Assembly: GCA_951406725.2 (NCBI GenBank)
Contig: OX597828.1
Location: 15,748,001 to 15,812,000 of the forward strand
From: Octopus vulgaris
Taxonomy: Eukaryota
Direction of reading: 5' to 3'
DNA length: 64,000 nt
Shown piece by piece: positions 2,651-42,984 of the stretch (its first letter is position 1; every line of letters starts with the position of its first letter). Both the position numbers and the translations under genes were made by a program. Below the pieces are notes generated by a model. It was not told the origin of the DNA. It saw nothing but the letters and a program-made list of their open reading frames with translations, and did no database searches.

Positions 2651-4134
2651 CAAGTGGTTTTATGGGAGACTTGGCTGCTCTTTCTGGAATATCGAACTAC
2701 CTCTAAGAAGCTTTCTTTTCGACAAATTTATTTATTAGTTATTGCTATTATAAAACCCCAGGTCATCTGTTTACGCAGACTTATGGTCAAAAGCGTTGAA
2801 ACCGTGACCGTTCCATCTATTATTCCGATCATGTAGTTCTTAAGACTATCACCACAAGCGTCCTTCCTTCCTCTCTTTTAATGACCGTAGGTTTTGGTTC
2901 GAAGCAGATTTCGCTGCTCTTTTTAGAGTATCTATTAGAGTCGTGTGCCGTTGAATAAATGACAAAGCCTTCTCATATTCATTCTCCTCTATGTTAAGCA
3001 GACCAGTTACCAAAGGAGCTTTCCAACCGTGACCATCCTATCTTAACTCCTATCTTTCTTCACGTATTATAAACCCCAGATCATTGAAGGTGACTGATTT
3101 CTTTTTTTTTAATGTTAGCAAGTGCTTTTGAGGGCGATTTAGCTACTTTGTAAATGTAAAATGTTGCTGGGCAGCCCCCGCCGGGTTAGCCCCCTGTGGT
3201 TAATCCTGATTAACTTAAGATCAAAAGCAATCCAGCTGTGACCATCCTGTTCCCCACCCCCAGTGTGCAAAAACCTCAGGATCACATTTATCAACACGTT
3301 CTTTTTCGAAGACGGTGGGGTGTAATTTAAAGAAAATTTGGTTGCTATTTCTAGTTGCTCAGTCACCCGACCACACAGTGTCTCTCTTACGTTGGCTTGC
3401 GCAATATGAAAAGTTATCGGTTCGTTAAAAACCTAAGCAGATGGCTGTCGTTTTTTCTCTTTATTTTCGCTCTTTTTAAATGATTAATCTTGATAAACCA
3501 GTGTTTTCTCTAATCTTTTTAAGAAATCGACACACTTTTATTTCACTATAAGTGAAACGACACACGGCATACTATAAATAGTATAACATTTATTTAAAGC
3601 GTTGAATAAAAACGAAACTTGGCTCGCTCGTGTCTATGTATATGAGAGAGAGAGTAGGGGGAGAAAGAGTAAGCATGCGCAGATCAAATTAGGTAATTAA
3701 GTTTAATTTTAATCTGTAAAAAAGTGTAAAAAAAGAAAAAAGAGAAATGAAATAGAGCAATATGAGATCGGAAAATATCGGGATACATCAGTAAATTTAG
3801 CGATATACTTGAAATGTCGAGACAGCGGTGTTGGAAAATACAGCGGCGAAATAAACAAGGGCAAATTTTTATTTTCATTTCGCCGACATCCTTTAAAACA
3901 AAACATTCAAACATCGTCTGACACAACAAATCCTTGGGTTATGGTACACCGAGCTTCTTATCAATTACACACCTTTGTATATTTGTCTCTTTATTTATTT
4001 ATGTGTACAAAGAGTGCAAAGTCAATTTCAATTCCCAATAGAAACAGCTTCACTTCATTAATCTGTTAATAACCATCGATAAAGGCTTTTTGGCCGTTTA
4101 ATCGTATTATTTGACTTCCTCTCTACACTGATAA

Positions 4135-7082: not shown

Positions 7083-7579
7083 CCTCGCACTCTTTCCCTC
7101 CCTCTTCCTCTCTCACTTTCCACGTATGTGTGTATGTGTGTGTTTGGAAACAAAAATGGGGATGGTCACAGATGGAAAGTTTTGATTACATTTGTTCAGT
7201 CATGGCTTGCCTGAAGGTTAGACAACCAGCAGCTAACCAAATAATCCGCCATATTGGTTTGTTTTGATTAGATGTAAAGCCAGCTCTCGCGTGTAAATGT
7301 CGAAGTCGTCTGTACCTCTTTTATAGACCCCAGGAGGAATGAAATAAATGTTATTTCTGACTGGATGCGAACTAAAAACAAAGAAAGATGAAGTTAACCA
7401 TTAGATTCTGTTGTAATTTAGTCACCGTCTTTGATTATCTCTGTCTGATCGAGCAGACGTGATAATCTAAGGTAATACGTACGCTGACTACCAATTGAAT
7501 TTTTTTCATGCATAGTATATCTAGATTTACATTAGCCAGCGTATCGTTTTATTGGTAGTGGTATTATTTGAGTAAGATT

Positions 7580-27758: not shown

Positions 27759-27808
27759 ATGGAGTTGAGTTTCTCCGTTCAACGATGGACGACGGAAAAA
27801 ACTGTCAG
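27759..27808 (+). CDS. Candidate first exon coding part (MELSFSVQRWTTEKTV, phase 2) of an unidentified gene; may instead be 5'UTR
   Basis: ATG at 27759 and donor CAG|GTAGCA at 27809. The phase-2 end joins in frame with the open frame of exon 42910-42984. Confidence 0.4.
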
Positions 27809-29170
27809 GTAGCACATTTTTCTTTTATTTCAAATCGTACCTCTTCGATTCCAAATCACACAAAAGCATTTTCCCACCCTCCATCTAACACATATACACG
27901 CACACAAATACATCATATAGTTCCTACCAAACTTCTAGTTAATGAAAAGTACATATATACACACACACACTTATGTGTATATGTATTATATATACATATA
28001 TGCATGTGTATAATCCTGTGTGTGTATATTATATCAGTGTGTATTTGGAAAATAGCGGTCAAGATTACTTATAATACTTCCTCCCCCTCTTCTCTTCTTT
28101 TTTTCTCCTCCCCCTTTGTTTATCTTCATTTCTCTCTTTTTCTTTTCTTCAAATTCATCCTTTTCCTTCTGTCTCTCTCTCTTTCTTTTCTCTTTTCACT
28201 TCACCCTGCAGCCGCACCACATACACATACACATAATTATACAGTTGAGCTTTAATGTCTTTTTCCGTTGCTTTACTTTTGTTTATTACATATGTGTGTC
28301 TGCGTGTATATATATATATATATACGCGCACACACGCATATCTAATTAAACGTACGTATTATATATGTGTATGTGTGTGTATATATATGTGTGTATGTGT
28401 GAGTATATATATAACATGTATATGTGTGTATATATATATATATATTTATAATATGTATGTGTGTATATATATATAATATGTATATGTGTATATATATATG
28501 TATATGTGGGTATATGTGTATATGTATATGTGGGTATATGTGTATATGTATATGTGGGTATATATATATATTTATAATATGTATGTGTATATATATATAT
28601 ATAATATGTATGTGTATATATATATATATAATATGTATGTGTGTATATATATATATATAATATGTATGTGTGTATATATATATTTATAATATGTGTGTAT
28701 ATATATATTTATAATATGTGTGTATATATATATATATAATATGTATATATATATAATGTAATAGTAAAGCAATGGAAAAGAAACCGTCGGTTGCTGTTAT
28801 CATTTAAATTAATTTTAAATTATAAATTTGCTAGAATTATTACGAACAGTAATTTTATAAAAATTATTTTAAAATTATATTTTTGTTGTTTTTTTTTTTT
28901 AATATTTTCTTTTTAATAGAATATTTTAAGATGAAAGATCTAATACGAAAAAAAAAATCTATTAACTTTTTAAGTGTTGATAATAATAACTTCATTTGCC
29001 GAGATCGTGTCTTATTTATTATACGCAACCAGCTGTATATAACCGCATTCATCAACACTCACACACGCATGTGCCTATCTATGTATTATATTCGCCTCTC
29101 TCACTCTCTCTCTACACACGCGCGCGTATACACATTAAAGTGTGTGTTAGTGAATGAATTAACGTGCGTG

Positions 29171-29203
<33 letters not shown>

Positions 29204-29753
29204 TGGTTCGGTTTTTCTATCGAATTATTTTCATTTTCTGTATCCGATTCATTGATTTTACTTCTAAACGATTTTTTTTTCCACCACTTTTTCTCTCATT
29301 CTCTTCCTCTTACACCACAACACTTCATATTAATCTATCACCAGTGATTAAACAATATTCAGAAAAATATAAAACCCACATTTTTTTATGTAAAAAAAAT
29401 AATGATAAATAAATAAAAAGGAATTTTTAAAAAATATATTTTATCAGTGATATTATTTAATTGCATAATTTTTTTTATTTTTCCGAAGAAAAATCAGCAA
29501 CTGCGAGTCTGTCACCAGAGTTTTTCTTTTCATCTTCTTCTTACGCTTGTTTCGAAGTTGGCGTCATGTTCTTGTCTCTTTCTAGATTCTCAGCAAATTA
29601 CGCAAGAAGCAAAACATGGCAGAATTCTTGCAAGATCCATTTGGATAGTTCCCCATAGAATTTGCATTGAAATTGTTGGCAGTAATCATTCATTTCTGTC
29701 TTTGTTTTCTGCAACTGAGGAGAATCGGGAAAAGTTTATACGATTCGGCCAGG

Positions 29754-29764
29754 CAAAATGGCGG
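29754..29764 (+). promoter_or_regulatory. Consensus YY1 site, possible alternative promoter
   Basis: CAAAATGGCGG in a CpG-retaining unique region. Confidence 0.4.
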
Positions 29765-29899
29765 TTCTTAGAAATATAATAATAATAATAATAATTATTA
29801 TTATTATTAAGGAAGGGCTCTCCCCCGCTCATTGCAATCTGGTTTCATATTTATGATTTAAATAATATTTTACCAGTTTTCTCTCTTTTTATATCTTAG

Positions 29900-29908
29900 A
29901 GGTGAGAG
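29900..29908 (+). other. Candidate 9-nt microexon (AGGTGAGAG)
   Basis: Acceptor TTTTCTCTCTTTTTATATCTTAG| and consensus donor GAG|GTAAGT; the length preserves frame. Confidence 0.45.
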
Positions 29909-30272
29909 GTAAGTTACGTTGATCTGCGTAAGAAAATAAACACCGTCAAACAAAACTAGATTAAGGAACGTAAATAATATGTTAATTTCAATTTATCCGT
30001 TAGTGATTTCGAAAGAAAGAGGTTTAAAATACAAAGAAAAGATAAAAGGTTTTTTCTTTTTTTAAACATTTAAAAAAAAAAATATATTATTTACAAGAAA
30101 TCTGTACATTTAGGTTACTTGTCCTTTGAAGTACATTCAGTCGCTGCTTGTGCGTTGCCATAGTTGTTTGTCAATTAAGAAGTAGTTTAATTAATTACTT
30201 AAGAGAAACCGTTTTCTTTTCCCTCCTTCGTTCCTCTTTCATGCTTTTTTTTTTTTTCTTATTTACCACTAG

Positions 30273-30299
30273 TTGGTCAGTTGCGCTTGTTTGTTGTTG
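30273..30299 (+). other. Candidate 27-nt microexon, or 3' end of an alternative first exon
   Basis: A long T tract followed by ATTTACCACTAG| acceptor and TTG|GTAAGT donor. It preserves frame and reads (S)WSVALVCC(C) in the phase-2 frame. Confidence 0.4.
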
Positions 30300-30757
30300 G
30301 TAAGTGTTGTTGTTTAGTATTAGCGTAGAGTTTACTGAGGAAAAATCTTAGTCACCTCTGCATTTCTCTCTCTCTCTCTCTTTCTCCCCCCGTAATCACT
30401 GCATCGAAAATGTATTGGATTCTACTTTTGTATCGATTTAAAACAGCAGTATCTGTCTAGTCCCATAAATATTGATATATTTCGGTATTTCTAATCTAAT
30501 CATCACGATGACCTTACGCTAGTATTGACATCTATCTATCTATATATCTATCCATCCATCTATCTATCTATCCACCTATCTATCATGCTTATTGTTTCCC
30601 TCATCTGATGCCTCCGTGGCAAATAAATAAGTATTATTATTATTATTCTGCATCTTATTTATATTTTGTGTACGGTTATTGATTTTTGTTATTCTGGAAG
30701 CTGAGACATTTTAATGCACTTTTGGTTGCTACATTTTCTTTTTTCATGTACTAATCG

Positions 30758-30804
<47 letters not shown>

Positions 30805-33292
30805 GGTGAGAATTTTTTAGTGTAGTGGAAGGGTAAAGATAGAGTATGCTGGAATTAGATGAGAAAAGAAAGAAATAAAATAGATTCTGCTTAGATGAAA
30901 TTCTGTGGAAGGAACCCGAAATCGCGTGTGGCTGTGTCTAAACTACGATGACGACAATATCAGAACTGCTAACACCGATCTTATGTGGGTGTGTGGAAAG
31001 GAAACAGACGTTTTAATATTTTGGTAAGGTGCGTAATAAGTGGAGAAATTGCTAGGCTGCTTGCTAATAAAAATGCTAGAATTATCGGATAAAGCAGCAG
31101 AAGTGTGAGATCGAAGGTTTATAGTTTGATCATTCCGCGTAAATCATTTATATTTACACCTCCTTTAGTCCTTTTGTAATGTCAATATTTACGTCTTTCG
31201 TTCGGTGAATGTTTCCCAGTAAAATTATAATATCGAGAAATTGTTCCGTTTTTTTGTTTGTTGGTTTTTATACTTTGTTGTGCTTTTATTTTCATTCATT
31301 ATTTAAAATCTGTTAATTGTTTATTTCCGTTCTTTTTCTTCTTCTTCTTCTCTCCCTCCCTATCTGCTGCTTCTTGGCATTCGTTACCATGACGCAGTCA
31401 ATATTTTTTGACAACTTTTCCAATACTGTTATTTATGATAATTGATATGTTTATTTGTCGGAAAAAAATCCAATCTATTCCTATGTGAAATATATAAACA
31501 TCTACTGCAATACATCCACGCAAGTGATAAAGCTGTCGATGTAAAAAGAGTAATCAAAGTTGTGAAGATGCCATGGAGGATAAACTGATAACATAACATT
31601 ATTCATTTTGAAACCAAAAATTATATTTAAATAAATTTTTTGAATGACATATCTTTTTGAATAAGTTTCTAAGCAAGTTCAGTGAATTTTTTTCTTCAGT
31701 CGATCTCACGTTGCCAGATATTTGCGAACAATTCACCAACTCAGTATTGCTGAAGATAAATAGGGCGAGAGAGTGTGTTTACTGTGTGATTATTTTTAGT
31801 GAGACGACAGTAAATTAGTTTTCATTGAAAAAAAATTTTTTTTTTTCTTTCATTCAGTGACGAAATTTTATTTGGTTTCGTATTTAGTAGGTTGGAGATG
31901 GAGAACGAATACCTAGATTATTTTTTTTTAGCAATTTTAATTTTTGATTTTTTTTTAACGAAATCGTTAACGAGGAAAGAAAAGAAAAAGACAAATTAGT
32001 ATTAGTTTATCTAAATTTTAACCGTTTCTCATGATAGTTGAGTTTTACCAAACCCGGTAAATATCGATACACGCTCGACTTGTTAGGCCTCAAATCGCAG
32101 CCTTATGTCTTAGAAGACTGGAAAGTCATTGGACAATATAACCCTAGAAATATTGTTTTGAAGCAGAAACACAGGATGGTCACGGCTGGAGTGCTATGTA
32201 TCAGAGTACTTCCTGAATAGAGCTATCGACTACTTCGGCTCACATTTTAAACGATGTTCTAATGAAATGCTAAATTCGTATTTCGATCTATAAACAGTCT
32301 GTCAATGTGACAGAAATGCATAAACTTCGGTTTATCTGCTATAATTATTTACTGAAAACTTTCTCTCCGGCATGGTGACGCATCATTTGTGATCGTTTGC
32401 TATTGAATGAGTTGTAACCTTCGGAATCTTTACTACGATATTCAGTATTCAGCGAGACGGTTGTATTATTTTAATCAATCAATATCGATTGATTAAATCC
32501 TATACGATTTTTTTAAAATGACTTTTATGCTTGCATAAGTTTCTGGCTATCTCCAGCCAATTTTTTTTTTCAACAAGTCGATTTTTGTTGTTTAACCTCT
32601 CGGCAAAGCAGGACTTACCTGGGGTTTAAACAACAGCAATACTTGCTTCAACTGTTCTTTGCAAATGATATTTGCTATTTTGTTGAATCTTCCAACTCCT
32701 GTCAGATATTTAATATCGATTCGGATAAAGAATCAAGAATAAAGTCTTATTATATGAAGGTTGTATAGCCCCAGCTGATCCCCTATTTAGTAGATCTTTG
32801 ATCAAATGTACTCTGGCTTTGATCATCTCTCCTTTTCTTTATTCTCCTGGTACTGCATGTTAGGAATACTTTATCGAATATTTTTCTATTTACAAAATGC
32901 TAGAGTAAAATCTGAGGACGATTTCGCTGCTATTTCTAGCAGATCGAGCGACAGCATAGAAGTTTCCTTCTTTGAGTAAATGTATGTAGGTGAAAAGAAC
33001 AGCGAGCTGAGGTGTTAGAGAGGAGGTGATCTTGCTGATTGAATGCGAACGGTTAATGATTCATATCCTGTAACTAGTGAGACACTTAATTCCTGGAAAA
33101 GACTTTTCAGTTCAGCCAGTTGTGTGTGGCATAGAACACAACACACGTTTCATTGCTCGAAGCACCTTGTGAGTGACGAGTGCTCAAATGAACTAATTAA
33201 CACGATTCCTTCTTGCCGTGCAAAACGTACTGCCATTTAGTTGTCCTCTTGTTTGAAGGATTCTTTAATGGAAAAGAAAAAAAAAAAAAAAG

Positions 33293-33570
33293 CAGGAGTG
33301 GCTGTGTGGTAAGTAGCTTGCTAACCAGCCACATGGTTCCGGGTTCAGTCCCACTGCGTGGCATCTTGGGCAAGTGTCTTCTGCTATAGCCCCGGGCCGA
33401 CCAATGCCTTGTGAGTGGATTTGGTAGACGGAAACTGAAAGAAGCCTGTCGTATATATATGTGTGTGTGTTTGTGTGTCTGTGTTTGTCCCCCTAGCATT
33501 GCTTGACAACCGATGCTGGTGTGTTTACGTCCCCGTCACTTACCGGTTCAGCAAAAGAGACTGATAGAAC
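33293..33570 (+). mobile_element. SINE family A copy (young, 3'-truncated)
   Basis: Near-identical to the reverse complement of 137-536. Confidence 0.9.
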
Positions 33571-33814
33571 TGTTTAAAAAAAATAATTGCTAACATCCTC
33601 AAATGTCTCGAAAATTTTACAAGGACTAATGCTTACTTCTGGTTTTATGTTGCCAAGCAGATGAGTTTGTAACTTTCCTTGTAGATCTGATAAGAAGTGA
33701 GTTATGTAGTGTTATTTAGTATCTATCCCTGTACAGTGGGTTTCAACTTCAGTATTTCATTAATTTAGTTAAATAGTTTTTATATGTAACCGGTTATACC
33801 TTCTTTCTTTTATA

Positions 33815-34605
33815 TGTTTGTCTTTGGACTTTGGTCATGCTGGGGCACTTAATTAGAGTTTAACCTAATGAATCAGTCCCAATACTTATTTTAAAGTTTG
33901 GTACTTATTTCATCGGTCCCTTTAGCTGAATTGCTGAGTTGTGGGGATGTAAACAAACCAGCACCAGTTGTCAATTGGTAATAGGGGCTAGACGCACATA
34001 CAAAACGTAGAAAAATGGATGTTGAATGATGATGGTGATATACATACATGACAGACTTCCACATAGTTTCAATTTACTGAATTCACTTGCAAAGCATTGA
34101 GGGGCACAAAGCCAAACAATATCTTGTGAAGACACTTGTCCTAGGTGCCACACAGTGGGACTGAACCAGGAACCACGTGCTTGCAAAGCAAGCTTCTTAA
34201 CCACAGCCATGCTTAACACAAAGGTGTGGCTGTGTGGTAAGAATCTTGCTTCCCAACCACATGGTTCTTGGTTCAGTCCCACTGTGTGGCACCTTGGACA
34301 AGTGTCTTTTATGGCCTCAGGCTGACCAAAGACTTGTGAGTGGATTTAGTTGGCAGAAACTGAAAGAAGCGCATTGTATATATGATGTGTGTGTGTGTGT
34401 GTGTGTTTCCACCACTACTGCTTGACAACTAGTTTTGGTGTGTTTACATACTTGTAACTTAGCAGTTTGACAAAAGAGACTGACAGAATTAGTACTAAGC
34501 TTTAAAAAAATACCTACTGGGACCAATTTGTTCTACTTAAAATTCTTCAAGGTGATGCTCGAGTATTGCTGCAGTCTAATGACTGAAACAAGTAAAAGAT
34601 AAAAA
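33815..34605. mobile_element. Head-to-head inverted pair of family A SINEs (- 33815-34212, + 34222-34605)
   Basis: ...CTTAACCACAGCCATGCTT aacaca AAGGTGTGGCTGTGTGGTAAG...; both copies are CpG-decayed. Confidence 0.75.
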
Positions 34606-35364
34606 ATAAATCCTTTAGAAGAATAATGCCTGAATTATTTCAGTTCAATATTTCTTTGACTGTTTACCTCATTCTCATTTCTTGCCGATGCTGTTGTATT
34701 ATTTTCACTTGTAACTGAATGCAATTGAAGATGACATTGGAAATTCCCCCAAAACTCAACAACACATTTTCATGCCTTTTAGGAATGAATACATTCTCCC
34801 ATAATGGTCCTTTTGATATTACCTCACTTATGGTTGTCTCTAGTTTTCATCCTGTTTTAAATTCTACATATTTAACCTTGTTATATTTTCATAAGGATCC
34901 TTTTGTATTCCAAAGGACCTGGTTAATTATGCAAAACTTCAACTTTTTCTAAATTCTTATTTCTAAAATTAATTGAAACAGTATATGACTTTGTGACTAA
35001 GTTTGCTTCCCAACCATGGGGTCTTGGGTTCACCCCACTGTATGGAGCCTTGGGCATATTTCTTCTATATAGTTCTGATTGCTCAAAGGTTTGTGAGTGG
35101 GTTTGGTAAAAAAGAACTGAATGAAGCCCATTTTGTATGTGTGTGTGTGTGTGTGTATGATAGAAGGAGAAAAAACACAAAGATGAGGTTAAAAAAAAAA
35201 CCCCAAACAAACAGGGTGTATAAAGGATGATGTTAAAGTAAATTATAAGAAGTGTTTAATGTTTTGGGTATATGCTCTTTTATGGAAAGGAAAGATGAAG
35301 AGAAACAAAAAATAGAAAAGAGGTCTTTGAATTAGATGGTGAAAATGTGTGTGTGTGCAATGGC

Positions 35365-35675
35365 ATGAGAGTAATGTTAGATGACTGATCAAGAAGAAAT
35401 ATGGATCTAAATCTTCTATATACAAGGTAAACAGCAGTGCTAATGTGGATGCAATGTTCATCAATTTCAGAATATAGTAGCAATTACTTTACTCAAATTA
35501 TCAAAGAGAATTGGAAATGTTACTTCCTCTGACATTCTGTTTCAATGCTTTTATGGCTGACTAAATTATGGATGAACATGAAGGAGAGTTCATGCAGGAA
35601 TTGATAAATATTTGTTGTAGGTTCTTTGAGTTTTCACATGTTTACTTTGAGAGTTGCATACAAATCTGGATGAAT
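35365..35675. repeat. Old dispersed repeat, homologous to ~54898-55197
   Basis: Shared blocks GTTAGATGAC, AGAAGAAATAT, ATATACAAGGTAAA, TGCAATGTTCA, AATTATGGATGA and TTGAGTTTTCAC.TGTTTACTT, in the same order and spacing. Confidence 0.75.
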
Positions 35676-35724
35676 TTTTAATATACCTGTTGATTAGAGC
35701 TGGTCAAGCTATATAGCCATCACC

Positions 35725-35765
<41 letters not shown>

Positions 35766-38284
35766 ATATCCATTATCCCATCCCAGTTCAATCTGGTTGA
35801 GTCAACCTTTGGCTTGAAAGCAGCTGATCAAACATATAGGAACGGTCTGACTGAGGAATAATAACAGCTTCTGATATATAAAGATAACCAATGTGTTGGT
35901 TTTGGTTGAATTTTTAAATATCTGATCACCCTTTTCTAGCATGGCTGGTTTGTCTTTGTTTTAAATATGTTAAATTTTTCAAATGAAATTGAGAGCCATG
36001 TCTGTATATAATGTTCCTTTCTTGGCTGTATGTATTGGCTGGTCCGAGGATTTTTTTGTGTGGCTACTCATTGTAGCACATGTGTTTCTAAATGACCTGT
36101 TAGAAATAGCAGTCAAACATTCCTCCTGTCACACCTTACTGTTTTAAAAGAGGACATACTGGATAACACCATATGATCGCCTTGGACACCTTTGATTATA
36201 TAGTTCCATTTGGTAAGGGCTGAACTTGGATAAACACCTTGAGTCTGTGAGATTCAAGTGTCAGAAAGAAAGAAAAGAAAAACAGTAGAAAACTTCTTAG
36301 AAATACGTATTTATTGCTTCCTTTTCTAAATATTTTTAACCACAATATTTGTGTGTAATGTAGCTTAAATGACATTTTCCATGAAATCTGCAACTTGTCA
36401 AAGTTATACGTAATTTTTAAAAATTCATCTTTTTCTTTTCTTTCATTATGTAAAACTATAAAGTGAATTATATATATGTACTGTATTTTAATGTTTATAA
36501 GGAACCCCCTAATTCTTTGGGCTAAAAATTTTGAAAAAAAAACAGGTTTTGTAAGGGATTATAATTCTATCCATGAATAAGAAACTCCCATATTTTTTTT
36601 ACCTAATTTTTGGCAAAAAAGGGTTCCTTATACACGTTAAAATATGGTATATTATAGTGTTAAGTTCTTCATATATTGCATTTGTAAAGATTCAGTTTTC
36701 TTCTTAGTGTTATTTTAAAGATATATCGGTTTGAATTAGATCAGATGGTGATGTTGGTAAGGATAATAGGAGAACCAAACTATCCATGATCGTTAGTCTA
36801 ACAAAATATATTTTGTTTTGCCTATGGCTCTTTGGGAACTAGAAAATAATATTTAGGGAAGCTGATTTATAACCTATGACTGGAAAATAAAAATGAGAAT
36901 TTTAGGCACAGATATGGCTGTGTTGTGCAGAGTTTGATTCTCAATCACAAGGTTCCAGAATCAGTCCTACTGCATGGCTGACCAGAACCTTGTTAGTGGA
37001 TTTGGTAGATAGGAATTGAAAAAAAGCTCTTCCCATGCAGGCATGGGTTGGACAGTTTGACTGAAAACTGGTAAGTTGGGGTGGGGGACTGCATTAAGTT
37101 CTGATCTGATTTGGCAAGGTTTCTACAGCTGGATGCCATTCCTAATGCCTACCACTCAGGTGGCACATAAATATATGTATATGTGTGTTTGTGTCTGAAT
37201 TTGTTCCCCACCATCACTTGACAACTGGTATTGTTGTGTTTACATCCCTCATAACTTAGTAGTTCAGCAAAGAGACTGATAGAATAATTACCAGGCTTTT
37301 AAATAAGTATGAAAGTTAATTCACTCACCTGAAGTTTGTAAAGGTGATGCCCCAGCATGGCCACAGTCCAGTGACAGAAACATATTAAGATTTATATATA
37401 TGTACACACATAATCACGTACATACACAACAACACATCCACACATGCGTAATCATACAAGACACACACACATGCTCATATAAAACATACATATAATAGAT
37501 ATACATACAAGAATTCATATAGCTGACCATGATAGAAATTCTACTGGAAGCAATTTTATCTACATCTCTTTTTCATGTTGGTGAAAGAAATACTTTGAAT
37601 CAGCAATGCTTCTTTCTTTTCATACTAAAAAAAGACAAATAAAACACCAAAAAATCTTTGTTTAAAGAAAGAAATCATTATTTTCCTGAATAACCACTTC
37701 TGTCAGAATTGCTTTCATGAAAATTGACCTTCAGGTTTCTTGTCTTCAGCATGCATGAGATATTGCTTCAATTTTCTCTTCCTTAAATATTTTCCTTGTA
37801 TTATGGAAGTGTTTTTTATGGAGCTAATAAAAACAGTTCTTGTTACGATGCAAACCTCATGTCTCGCTTTAGTGTTTGCTCAACTCTGTCCGTTTTCATT
37901 GAGAAATATTTCTACTCATCCCTTTGTCATTCTCACCATCACATATTGTAAATGTGTGTATGTATGTATGTGAGTCTCTATCTTGCTAGAAACAACAGTA
38001 ATCTCCTTCACATCACTAATCAATATCTTACAAAGAAGAAGAAATTTTTAAATGGCCACTTTCATAATGTAGTCTAGGATGGTGTGTTTGATGAGAGCTG
38101 ATTGAGTGTTAGACAAAAATAACAAATATTCTTGTGCTTATTATAAATTGGTACTAAGCATATAAATGCTTTATTTACTTTGCTTCCTATCTTCATTAAG
38201 GAATTATCAAATGATGGAAACAATGTTTAAAGATTTGGCATCAGATTTTGGTTAGTAACGTTTTTTTTTCCTGAATATTTTTTT

Positions 38285-38443
38285 TCTTTTTCTTTTACTT
38301 GTTTCAGTCATTTGACTGCGGCCATGCTGGAGCACCGCCTTTAGTCGAGCAAATCGACCCCGGGACTTATTCTTTGTGAGCCCAGTACTTATTCTATCGG
38401 TCTCTTGTTGCTGAACCGCTAAGTGACGGGGACGTAAACACAT

Positions 38444-38492
<49 letters not shown>

Positions 38493-38657
38493 TATATACG
38501 ACAGGCTTCTTTCAGTTTCCGTCTACCAAATCCACTCACAAGGCTTTGGTCGGCCTGAGGCTATAGTAGAAGACACTTGCTCAAGATGCTACACAGTGGG
38601 ACTGAACCCGGAACCATGTGCTTGGTTAGCAAGCTACTTACCACTCAGCCACTCCTG
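38285..38657 (-). mobile_element. SINE family A copy (relatively young)
   Basis: High similarity to 137-536, with most CpGs retained. Confidence 0.9.
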
Positions 38658-38911
38658 TAAATATACAGGAAAAAATAAAAAATTATAAAATGTATTAAGT
38701 TTGTGCAGAAGCTTCTCAGCAGTAATTCATCAAGTTGAATTGAGTGACCACATCTCTGAGCAAGCTCCTTAGATACCTTGAACAATGCCATGCATTATAA
38801 AAAGGGTAAAGACCCACTTCGAATGATCATGGGTTGCACTTAAAAAGTTCTCCTGAGGCACAAGCCTGGGCAAGATTGTTTATGGAAGACTAGCAGTCAC
38901 CCATGCATACC

Positions 38912-39908
38912 AGCCTCCCCTCTTCACACCACCAGTGTTATCTAAGGGGAAGGCAAAGACCGATACAGCTTCATACCAGTGCTGTTGCAACTCATTTCTA
39001 CAGCTAAGTGAACTGGAGCAACGTGAAATAAAGTGTCTTGCTCAAGAACATAATACACAGCCAAGTCAAGGAATTGAACTCACTACCTCATGATTGTGAG
39101 CCCGACACTCTAACCACTGAGCCATGCACCTTCATGCATTATATGAATGATATAAAAAAAATAATTGACAGGAATTCCTTACATGAAGCTAAACAGCAAT
39201 GGATTCTACAAACTATTTTATCAATTTTCTCTACCCATGCCAGCTTGGAAAATAGGCATTAAATGATCATGATTCACACACACACACGTGTGTGCAAATT
39301 TGACTGTGTGGTTAAGGAGTTTACTTTCCAATGACCTGATTTGGGGTTCAGTCCCACTACATGACACCTAGGACAAGTTTCTTCTCTATAACACTAGGCT
39401 GACCAAAGCCTTGTGAGTGGATTTGGTTGATGGAAACTGAAACAGGTTTGTGTGCATGTGTGTGCACATGCACACAAACACACATGCATATATAGTTCAA
39501 ATTTACAGAAAGCAAAAGATGAAGACAAGTGAAAGAAAAACAAGCAGGAGTATTATTTCAACACTCAAGAAGAATGGAAAAGTCATCGACATTTTGAGCC
39601 TATGCTCTTTGACAGAAAGAACTGAGAGAGAGAAAAATGTGTTGGGATTAACGGTTCAACATGATGAAATATATACATATTTTTGTAATCTCTTTGTCTT
39701 GACAATACAGGTCATTCGTAAATGAGTGTCACTGTTGTACAAACTGTGTCATTCGTTTCCAATATTCTGTGTAAACTTGTCTGGCCATGGGAAAATATTA
39801 CTTGACTTGGGAACAGGTGAGAGTTGGGATAGGAAGGGAATCCAACTGTAGAAAATCTGTCCCAATAAACTCTGTCTAACCCATATATCAGAGGGCATGA
39901 AAATGATG

Positions 39909-39943
<35 letters not shown>

Positions 39944-41121
39944 TAGAGAAAAACCACTATTATGTAATTCAAACACTGATAGACATAGACCATATCATAT
40001 AGAAAAAATAAAATATATTATAAAACATCTAGATATATGTTTTATATATGTTATCTAGGTAAATGTTTTATCATATATTTTATTTTTTCTATATGATATG
40101 GTTTATGTCTATCATTGTTTGAATTACATAATAGCCTCCCTCTTCACACCACCAGTGTTATCTAAGGGGAAGGCAAAGACCGATACAGCTTCATACCAGT
40201 GCTGTTGCAACTCATTTCTACAGCTAAGTGAACTGGAGCAACGTGAAATAAAGTGTCTTGCTCAAGAACATAATACACAGCCAAGTCAAGGAATTGAACT
40301 CACTACCTCATGATTGTGAGCCCGACACTCTAACCACTGAGCCATGCACCTTCATGCATTATATGAATGATATAAAAAAAAAATAATTGACAGGAATTCC
40401 TTACATGAAGCTAAACAGCAATGGATTCTACAAACTATTTTATCAATTTTCTCTACCCATGCCAGCTTGGAAAATAGGCATTAAATGATCATGATTTCAC
40501 ACACACACGTGTGTGCAAATTTGACTGTGTGGTTAAGGAGTTTACTTTCCAATGACCTGATTTGGGGTTCAGTCCCACTACATGACACCTAGGACAAGTT
40601 TCTTCTCTATAACACTAGGCTGACCAAAGCCTTGTGAGTGGATTTGGTTGATGGAAACTGAAACAGGTTTGTGTGCATGTGTGTGCACACAAACACACAT
40701 GCATATATAGTTCAAATTTACAGAAAGCAAAAGATGAAGACAAGTGAAAGAAAAACAAGCAGGAGTATTATTTCAACACTCAAGAAGAATGGAAAAGTCA
40801 TCGACATTTTGAGCCTATGCTCTTTGACAGAAAGAACTGAGAGAGAAAAATGTGTTAGGATTAACGGTTCAACATGATGAAATATATACATATTTTTGTA
40901 ATCTCTTTGTCTTGACAATACAGGTCATTCGTAAATGAGTGTCACTGTTGTACAAACTGTGTCATTCGTTTCCAATATTCTGTGTAAACTTGTCTGGCCA
41001 TGGGAAAATATTACTTGACTTGGGAACAGGTGAGAGTTGGGATAGGAAGGGAATCCAACTGTAGAAAATCTGTCCCAATAAACTCTGTCTAACCCATATA
41101 TCAGAGGGCATGAAAATGATG

Positions 41122-41156
<35 letters not shown>

Positions 41157-41347
41157 TAGAGAAAAACCACTATTATGTAATTCAAACACTGATAGACATA
41201 GACCATATCATATAGAAAAAATAAAATATATTATAAAACATCTAGATATATGTTTTATATATGTTATCTAGGTAAATGTTTTATCATATATTTTATTTTT
41301 TCTATATGATATGGTTTATGTCTATCATTGTTTGAATTACATAATAG
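38912..41347. repeat. Tandem duplication of a ~1.22-kb unit (~38912-40132 / ~40133-41347)
   Basis: Near-identical blocks from AGCCTCCC TCTTCACACCACCAG to GAATTACATAATAG. Duplicated ORFs at 39749-39976 and 40962-41189 have identical translations. Confidence 0.95.
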
Positions 41348-41364
41348 TGGTTTTTCTCAAATTT
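41153..41364. repeat. Fold-back inverted repeat, ~89-bp arms
   Basis: AAATTAGAGAAAAACCACTATTATGTAATTCAAACA... pairs with ...TGTTTGAATTACATAATAGTGGTTTTTCTCAAATTT. A truncated twin lies at 39940-40134. Confidence 0.85.
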
Positions 41365-41427
41365 ATATATACTAAATTGAATTTTTCCTGTAAATTTGGA
41401 GTTATGCTCCCTAATATTATTATCATA

Positions 41428-41513
<86 letters not shown>

Positions 41514-41516
<3 letters not shown>

Positions 41517-41686
41517 CAAAAGAAGAATACAGTGTACGTTCAAACACAAAAGAGATACCCGAAGAATAGTATATCTGACTCGCTAGAAAGAGCAGTTAAA
41601 ACTCCAAGCTCTTTCTAGCGAGTCAGATATCCTATTCTTCGGGTATCTCTTTTGTGTTTGAACGTACACTGTATTCTTCTTTGAAT
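41514..41686. repeat. Near-perfect hairpin, ~80-bp arms, 14-nt loop
   Basis: 41514-41593 versus 41608-41686, with one mismatch and one 1-nt indel. Confidence 0.95.
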
Positions 41687-42213
41687 AATATATAGTCTAT
41701 TGACTAATTTTTTCTTTCTCGCTAGATCACTGGTAGCAAAGAATTTTTCTATGAATATTCTTGCTACCCTAAGATTTTAATTAATGATAAAATGTTTTTA
41801 TATAAATATATATATATATATTTATATATATATACGCACACAATCATACATGGGCTAGGTTGCTATTTAGTTAGCTTATTTAGGAGTTATAGGTTTACTT
41901 GCTGAATTTATTTACCGATACTGTTTTTTGTACATTGAGTATATGTGTTACTTTGTTGTGGTTTAATTAATAATGTTAGTGTTTAATCCTTAGATTGAAT
42001 GAATGTGGTGATATCTATGGTATATTTGTTCTAATACAAAACTTATTTTAGTGCTGTTGACACCACTGGATTGAATGGTACTGCCCAGGTGTCGAAACCA
42101 TAGCGATATCCATGGGGCAGCTGATGAAGGAGGTATGTTGGATTGTTGGTATGGCTGTTAGTGTATGTGCAGAATAGTTTTATATCACATCTATTTGATA
42201 TATATATATATAT

Positions 42214-42421
42214 AATATGAAATAGTGTACATTTAAGCACAAGAGAAAACTACCCTTTAACAGGTAATTTTTACACGCTAGAGCATAGACTCCAAATGTC
42301 AATGACTTTTCCATTCTTCTTGAGTGTTGAAATAATACTCCTGGCTGCTTCTTCTAGCATGTAAAAATTGCCTGTTAAAGGGTAGCTTTTTCTTGTGTTT
42401 AAATGTACACTATTTTATATT
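42214..42421. repeat. Inverted repeat (~69-bp arms) enclosing a decayed Penelope-like/hammerhead fragment
   Basis: AATAGTGTACATTTAA...CTACCCTTTAACAGG.AATTTTTACA.GCTAG versus its reverse complement at 42353-42421. The loop matches the reverse complement of 39545-39607. Confidence 0.8.
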
Positions 42422-42630
42422 AAAAATATATTGTCTGTTGACTATTTATACATGCTAGGCCGCTGGTGGTGATATTTCCAAAGAATATTCGCTACCCTAT
42501 ATATGTATATATATATATATCTATCTATCTATCTATCTATCTATATATATATATATATATACACCGGAGTAAACACATAAATGTGAAACAAGGTGCAAAA
42601 AAAGAGTACTCAAATATCAGGGGTAGAGTA

Positions 42631-42796
42631 ATATGCTTTATTTAAAAGTAGCAGAAATTCAACAAAACCTGTTACTCGGAGTTTCACGTTCCCATTCGTC
42701 GGACAGTTTTGTTAACAAAACTGTCCGACGAATGGGAACGTGAAACTCCGAGTAACAGGTTTTGCTGAATTTCTGCTGCTTTTAAATAAAGTATAT
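42631..42796. repeat. Loopless palindrome, 83-bp arms, centred on GTT|AAC (42713/42714)
   Basis: Arm-to-arm comparison shows 3 mismatches. Confidence 0.95.
42717..42763 (+). ncRNA. Type I hammerhead ribozyme-like fold (mirror copy on - strand at 42664-42710)
   Basis: AAAA CUGU CCGACGA AUG ggaa CGU GAAA CUC c GAG UA ACAG g UUUU. Stem I CUGU/ACAG, stem II AUG/CGU, stem III ACUC/GAGU, GUA triplet at 42752-42754; U4C variant. Confidence 0.7.
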
Positions 42797-42909
42797 GTAT
42801 ATATATATGGTCTAGAGTAATTGTATGTAATTTTTGTTGAATATTTGAGTCTTTTCTGTTTCCTCTTCACTAAAACAAACCTGTTTGGTAATTTTATCTC
42901 CTTTTATAG

Positions 42910-42984
42910 TGTGACAAACTCACTGAAGATGAATCTAAATAGACTACTTGGAGACTCAGTAATAGAAAACACAAGAAAATATAG
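42910..42984 (+). CDS. 75-nt exon of an unidentified gene; open frame VTNSLKMNLNRLLGDSVIENTRKY, ATG at 42929
   Basis: Acceptor ATTTTATCTCCTTTTATAG| and donor TAG|GTAAGC; symmetric phase 2-2; the ATG has A at -3. No protein family recognised. Confidence 0.6.

Follow-up and report, generated by a model that had tools for sequence, protein, structure and literature searches.

A probable head-to-head Penelope-like insertion with two hammerhead motifs in the first intron of Octopus vulgaris SFMBT

The inverted arms and their host intron

The window, by which we mean the whole 64,000-nt stretch of Octopus vulgaris DNA that was analysed, contains two inverted arms at 42631-42713 and 42714-42796, each 83 nt long, that match at 80 of 83 positions (three mismatches) and are separated by a spacer of 0 nt. 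An earlier note on this DNA had described a loopless palindrome with 83-bp arms; the arms were confirmed, but the insert is larger than claimed and spans 42562-42791. Comparison with other copies of the family extends the left arm out to ~42562 and ends the element sequence in the right arm at 42791, the remainder being (TA)n target. The lack of a loop reflects a self-complementary 4-nt TTAA at 42712-42715, which both arms have in common; when a natural copy (locus L021) was aligned to the window by BLAST, the pieces covered 42712-42808 and 42715-42631. The note had also placed a GUA-triplet hammerhead motif on both strands, and a relaxed pattern of our own, run over both strands of the 64-kb window, returned two matches, which are these two motifs. 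The features of the region are as follows.

27777-27808, + strand: 3' end of SFMBT exon 1, with donor CAG/GTAGCA at 27808 (contig loose ends map to 27777-27806)
42498-42561, no strand: left-flank target, (TA)n/(TATC)n
42562-42713, - strand: long arm, 152 nt, probably a 5'-truncated pLTR end of a Penelope-like element (PLE) with hammerhead motif and tail (compared with family long arms)
42562-42635, - strand: tail of the long arm, ~70 nt (compared with family long arms)
42663-42711, - strand: second hammerhead motif, antisense in the host pre-mRNA (C3 at 42702, N17 at 42673)
42712-42715, no strand: TTAA, self-complementary micro-overlap at the head-to-head junction
42714-42791, + strand: short arm, 78 nt, the same pLTR end without the tail, with 3' end ...AAATAAAG and then (TA)n
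42716-42764, + strand: sense hammerhead motif, minimal type I (C3 at 42725, N17 of the GUA at 42754; predicted cut after 42754)
42792-42808, no strand: right-flank target, (TA)n
42870-42874, + strand: CTAAA, a predicted branch-point-like site ~80 nt downstream of the insert
42910-42984, + strand: SFMBT exon 2, 75 nt, 5' UTR (contigs of runs X1 and X3)

Contigs of two RNA-like runs, X1 and X3, match 42908-42984 without mismatch, and the segment 42910-42984 is thus an exon, as had been proposed. The X1 contig spans this stretch and has a loose end on either side of it, and in the 4061-nt X3 contig the stretch occupies positions 49-125; both runs were taken as RNA by guess, and the spliced joints back their RNA nature. 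With exons placed from the loose ends of the contigs, intron 1 of SFMBT corresponds to 27809-42909 (~15 kb), the gene lies on the + strand and the insert lies within this intron. The acceptor AG is read at 42908-42909, in agreement with the ~155 nt that had been given as its distance from the predicted sense cut site. Exon 3 begins behind an acceptor 38 kb downstream, at position 7276 of the fetched segment L050, with the main ATG at L050:7380; its open reading frame matches SFMBT1 of Octopus sinensis (P0121) at 100% identity across 98% of the query and has the same Met start. A coding role for 42910-42984 was ruled out, as the annotated protein starts in exon 3. The 5' UTR (27785-27808, 42910-42984 and L050:7276-7385) contains three upstream open reading frames (uORFs) of 18, 19 and 35 codons, the stop of the third overlapping the main ATG, and exon 2 carries or completes two of them. 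These contigs show the exon joints, not the presence of the insert, so they do not prove the insert harmless.

Two further family copies lie in the same gene. One, in a later intron (L051:3354-3467), is an unpaired sense copy with a canonical core and a broken stem II, its N17 at 3394 falling 317 nt before an exon at 3711; the other, in intron 2 (L050:2638-2820), is an inverted pair cut off inside the motif, with the core absent. Intron 1 also contains a ~1.2-kb tandem duplication (38906-40134 and 40127-41347, 98.7% identity) with an AT-rich hairpin repeat in each unit, which may be either a recent duplication or an assembly artefact. Other hairpin repeats with arms of 71-106 nt occur in this intron at 41146-41371, 41519-41682, 42204-42431 and 34129-34308; most adjoin (TA)n, and the relaxed scan found no hammerhead in these four.

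The parent element and its copies

The repeat at locus L021 is 97% identical to that in the window and reads upstream into the C-terminus of an endonuclease. A search with L021 gave 12,529 candidates, of which 150 were scored, and five full-length loci (L043-L047) were fetched. They contain ORFs of 727-735 aa with the motifs DIIDFYPS, YRDD and VVY..YTG (reverse transcriptase, RT, plus C-terminal GIY-YIG). YRDD, the VVY..YTG nuclease motif, DKT, CxxC and CxH are present in all five ORFs, RWK in four, an intact CxCX5C in two and DKG in none. The ORF itself had no hits in Pfam or PDB, so that its identity rests on these motifs and on its homologues, 915 sequences that are nearly all unnamed, one of which (43% identical) carries PF01541. 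The pLTR repeat is found on both sides of the ORF in L043-L046 at 85-90% identity and was matched only on the 3' side in L047; full-length L046 has an inverted upstream copy in addition. The long arm in the window is ~90% identical to other family long arms and to the region upstream of the ORF in L043-L047.

Two subfamilies were distinguished, one with CTGATGA, a GCAA loop and a CAG loop, seen in full-length elements, and one with CCGACGA, a GGAA loop and a CCG loop, seen in short copies. The window copy belongs to the latter, which L021 and L048 connect to the 3' end of the ORF; the full-length elements form a sister subfamily ~90% identical in the pLTR with a canonical CUGAUGA core, and among the fetched loci the window's own subfamily was not represented by any intact ORF. 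On sequence grounds we class the family as an endonuclease-bearing (EN+) PLE. Its motifs and its preference for (TA)n targets, rather than a tree, point to the Hydra clade, for which RWK, DKT, CxCX5C, CxxC and CxH are given as diagnostic (PMC8557442, section 11). As that article describes it, the clade resembles the octopus family in its C-terminal GIY-YIG ORF with these motifs, of which the CxCX5C linker is intact in two of the five octopus ORFs, in a hammerhead within the pLTR and in its (TA)n target. A member from Octopus bimaculoides, Hydra-1_Obim, is already in print (PMC8557442, File S1); its description gives 2507 bp and "no pLTR", whereas the full-length units found here are ~3.4 kb with clear pLTRs. 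The tail of ~70 nt also differs from the 30-40 bp given for PLEs, as does the U4C core of the window's subfamily.

A DNA search of the Octopus vulgaris genome (2.8 Gb) returned 1373 candidates, 40 of them scored, and 60 matches. A 34-nt hammerhead core pattern has 483 exact matches genome-wide (control, 0), with nine head-to-head pairs and a single close same-strand pair among the first 100 listed. From these core matches 30 loci were fetched and four dropped as second members of a locus, leaving 26. Eight of the 26 have an inverted partner that holds a whole hammerhead, 11 have a partial inverted partner and seven lack an upstream partner, although one of these seven (L067) has a tail-to-tail copy downstream. 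The double hammerhead is thus a common form of the family. The inverted arrangement at 19 of 26 loci, together with the ORF motifs of the full-length relatives, bears out the suggestion of the earlier note that the palindrome is a PLE insertion with inverted pLTRs. We also considered a non-LTR retrozyme; this requires tandem head-to-tail units, and the copy in the window is head-to-head.

The 3' ends of the copies fall into two classes ~70 nt apart, followed in most copies by (TA)n; 31 of 52 BLAST pieces terminate at the short end and 19 at the long one, the other two stopping elsewhere. For the 5' ends, 30 arms from 27 loci (L089-L118) were picked on the 3' segment alone, a 34-mer of which has 690 exact matches in the genome; five of these loci were also in the earlier sample. 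Numbered from the right arm's first base, 15 of the 5' ends are scattered over +6 to +43, 14 fall within -8 to +4 and one is at -10. All but one of the arms extend 5' of the cut site, and the template RNAs of these 29 were therefore uncut there; the remaining arm ends near the site, at +41. Hammerhead cleavage was rejected as the source of the 5' ends, since only this one of 30 lies within +40 to +44. Copying rarely proceeds beyond about -6, with longer copies present among the core-selected loci. The boundary may represent the 5' end of the RNA or a stop of the reverse transcriptase at stem I, and its position at the base of stem I centres the palindrome on the 5' base of the hammerhead, so that both arms hold whole motifs. 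At the same boundary the sister subfamily reads TTCTAG/CAAAAAC, which resembles a splice acceptor; an intron ending at helix I, reported from Drosophila Penelope, may be compared.

The palindrome contains eight CpG dinucleotides (observed/expected 1.43, against 0.43 and 0.11 in the two flanks and 0.67 in the 64-kb window), which had been taken as a sign of recent insertion. In support of this, the right arm differs from the majority of the family columns at only 2 of 79 positions and the left arm at 5 of 152 (one in an end column), compared with a median of 4.4% outside the selected core for 46 other arms, and five of six and four of five family CpGs are retained. Three of the five hammerhead CpG columns, however, are a trait of the subfamily (CTGATGA and CAGAG stand at these places in the sister subfamily), so the retained CpGs reflect age only in part. 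The insertion nevertheless appears fairly young on these comparisons, and the window copy has no sign of special conservation. The DNA-type runs X19 and X20 contain the family, and the unique flank of the window was not covered in them at 88% likeness.

Predicted fold and origin of the inverted pair

The motif has the three-stem topology of a hammerhead. Stem I consists of 4+5 bp with a bulged G, stem II of A-U, U.G and G-C closed by a GGAA loop, and stem III of 3 bp with a CCG loop inside the near-palindromic ACUCCGAGU. The core reads CCGACGA (U4C) and so differs from CUGAnGA, there is no G10.1-C11.1 pair, and an Rfam scan gave no match at the gathering score. The computed hammerhead fold (-3.5 kcal/mol) is not the minimum-energy fold of the lone arm, pair probabilities for stems II and III are 0.01-0.04 and the lone arm is no more stable than shuffled sequences (z 0.43), although the evidence from all of these values is weak since the folding programs disregard tertiary contacts. 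The proposed sequestration of the sense motif in double-stranded RNA by the left arm agrees with prediction: the arm-arm duplex is computed at -134.9 kcal/mol, against -18.0 kcal/mol for the left-arm fold plus the hammerhead.

The motif is predicted likely to be too weak to cut even outside the hairpin. For a minimal PLE hammerhead, published monomer cleavage is nil and dimer cleavage little (PMC4209133), and a head-to-head pair places one sense motif on each strand, so that a dimer cannot form in cis. Some monomer activity is possible, given the 3 bp of stem III and the published behaviour of U4C, for which activity in vitro is considerably lower yet can suffice for viroid infectivity in vivo (PMC3088659). 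Through its near-palindromic stem III the motif could also base-pair in trans with transcripts from elsewhere in the family. The U4C form has nonetheless been amplified to hundreds of copies.

We consider it likely, with good though not complete confidence, that a PLE bearing Hydra-clade motifs left a short, 5'-truncated, head-to-head insertion within a (TA)n tract of SFMBT intron 1, and that its hammerhead is inert baggage. Reverse transcription would begin at two internal sites separated by ~70 nt and close to the 5' end of the RNA, which would account for one short arm and one long arm with a tail; it would copy uncleaved RNA back to the boundary near the stem I base, after which the two cDNAs would join head-to-head at the self-complementary TTAA. 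With that boundary just upstream of the hammerhead, both the doubling of the motif and the antisense-first order follow from the geometry. We infer on this basis that the insert, probably a passenger and not a switch for the gene, is uncleaved and without effect on SFMBT.

Several parts of this arrangement are already in print, namely the inverted pLTR, the tail and dual hammerheads on opposite strands, and palindromic junctions were earlier ascribed to the PLE mechanism (PMC3846280). Pairs of minimal hammerheads on opposite strands, ~100-700 bp apart, were noted in 2014. As described in PMC4209133 and PMC6765202, the minimal hammerheads of metazoan PLEs are, like the present motif, dispersed and of type I with a short palindromic helix III that suits dimers. 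The octopus motif differs from them in lacking G10.1-C11.1 (A-U here, A.A in the sister subfamily), in a stem II of just 3 bp, in U4C, in a stem III of 3 bp as opposed to the typical 1-2 bp, and in arms that abut without a spacer. The Poseidon element PAc of Anolis (PMC11167929) is alike in its two 3' ends set apart by the tail, its AT-rich targets and its uncleaved RNA template; its reverse transcription starts inside the ORF, whereas both ends here (+78 and ~+149) precede the first ATG (+215). The Anolis hammerhead is reported to cleave only in the presence of protein and to be dispensable for insertion (PMC11167929).

Other readings of the palindrome

Two readings that allow the hairpin some consequence survive better than the rest, and to each we give little weight. 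In the first, the motif is active to some degree and unpaired sense copies are purged from introns by selection more often than palindromic ones are, the hairpin thereby aiding tolerance of the insert while not acting as a switch. The duplex would indeed silence any activity, and both other family copies in the gene are defective, the sole unpaired sense copy found in SFMBT having a broken stem II and the second copy having no core. Against such selection, 18 of the 26 core-bearing loci, counted irrespective of genic context, are without a full upstream antisense hammerhead, the templates were uncut and the published monomer activity is nil (PMC4209133). Vertebrate retrozymes have been described as excluded from introns, a statement that concerns tandem units, unlike the head-to-head form (bioRxiv 10.64898/2026.07.22.740005).

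The second of these readings, which we hold to be equally improbable, is that the double-stranded RNA itself acts, either recruiting ADAR or Dicer or shifting the inclusion of exon 2 and hence of the uORFs in the SFMBT 5' UTR. The stem is near-perfect at ~80 bp and ends ~80 nt before the branch-like site, two of the uORFs depend on exon 2, and cephalopod intronic repeats are edited (PMC9068888). The stem closes on itself, however, upstream of both the branch-like site and the acceptor, several other hairpin repeats of similar length lie in intron 1, and exon 2 is present in both RNA-like runs.

Considerably less probable, to the point of being a very slim chance, is the regulated switch that the earlier note had proposed, in which the antisense arm locks an active ribozyme until ADAR or a helicase frees it to cut intron 1 and so tune SFMBT. 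The sense motif does lie upstream of a confirmed exon, the duplex is predicted, cephalopods edit repeats widely, introns included (PMC9068888), and intronic ribozymes such as that of CPEB3 can influence the host mRNA (PMC10919898). The explanation offered for tolerance of a sense ribozyme in an intron, a built-in off switch, is nevertheless not supported. The same geometry at 8 of 26 loci marks it as a family-wide by-product, predictions give the lone motif no stable hammerhead fold, copying went beyond the cut site in 29 of 30 arms, and the published monomer is inactive (PMC4209133). In any head-to-head pair the antisense arm comes first, whichever strand is read. Naiads, in which canonical hammerheads are absent, have inverted ends as well, and the window copy is young and without sign of special conservation. 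Vertebrate intronic ribozymes (the HDV-like ribozyme of CPEB3 and amniote intronic hammerheads) are likewise sense motifs within introns upstream of exons; they are described as conserved, and that of CPEB3 as measurably active, whereas the octopus motif is a young and weak copy among hundreds. The literature within our coverage, which leaves out most subscription journals, yielded no antisense-locked PLE hammerhead serving as a host switch.

Release by A-to-I editing, the other part of that proposal, fared no better in simulation (60 draws each), where each chosen A was made unpairable, the harshest model. With 50% of all A unpairable the mean fold was still -54.7 kcal/mol and the weakest -31.0, compared with -18.0 for the open state; only one of 60 draws left the five A of the sense core all intact. 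The duplex was lost only at 100% unpairable A, when the core was gone. The core adenosines are thus lost well before the duplex opens in this model; editing of the hairpin is plausible, it would likely destroy the core, and a switch is unlikely on these predictions. A>G rows at 42612, 42694 and 42714 were examined as signs of editing and rejected, as they occur also in DNA-type runs and reflect differences between copies; contigs over the insert derive from many family copies.

We assign a similarly small probability to a conditional ribozyme that is opened or refolded by a helicase or a PLE protein, such that PLE activity or editing gates SFMBT and dozens of loci genome-wide behave alike. The least probable reading, practically negligible, is a fold-back chimera of the assembly: perfectly abutting inverted arms are a recognised artefact of this kind, but here the arms differ at three positions and in length, end at two family-specific sites and have junctions that are not alike between loci.

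A head-to-head PLE insertion without regulatory function therefore remains our preferred reading, and as the evidence stands the insert is an ordinary transposon remnant. Were the switch reading to hold, the palindrome would be a naturally occurring ribozyme locked by its antisense arm and in control of a host gene, the Polycomb-group SFMBT. The wider interest lies in a large young family whose copies record two fixed 3' ends, a sharp boundary at stem I and the copying of RNA whose ribozyme was uncut. This record lends genomic backing, in a different clade, to the internal-initiation model demonstrated in vitro with a single Poseidon element, and supports the view that PLE hammerheads are unnecessary for insertion. 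One arrangement of a different kind was also seen, a tandem pair of same-strand core matches 142 nt apart (G000:C3:37396710 and 37396852) that would be able to form a dimer hammerhead.
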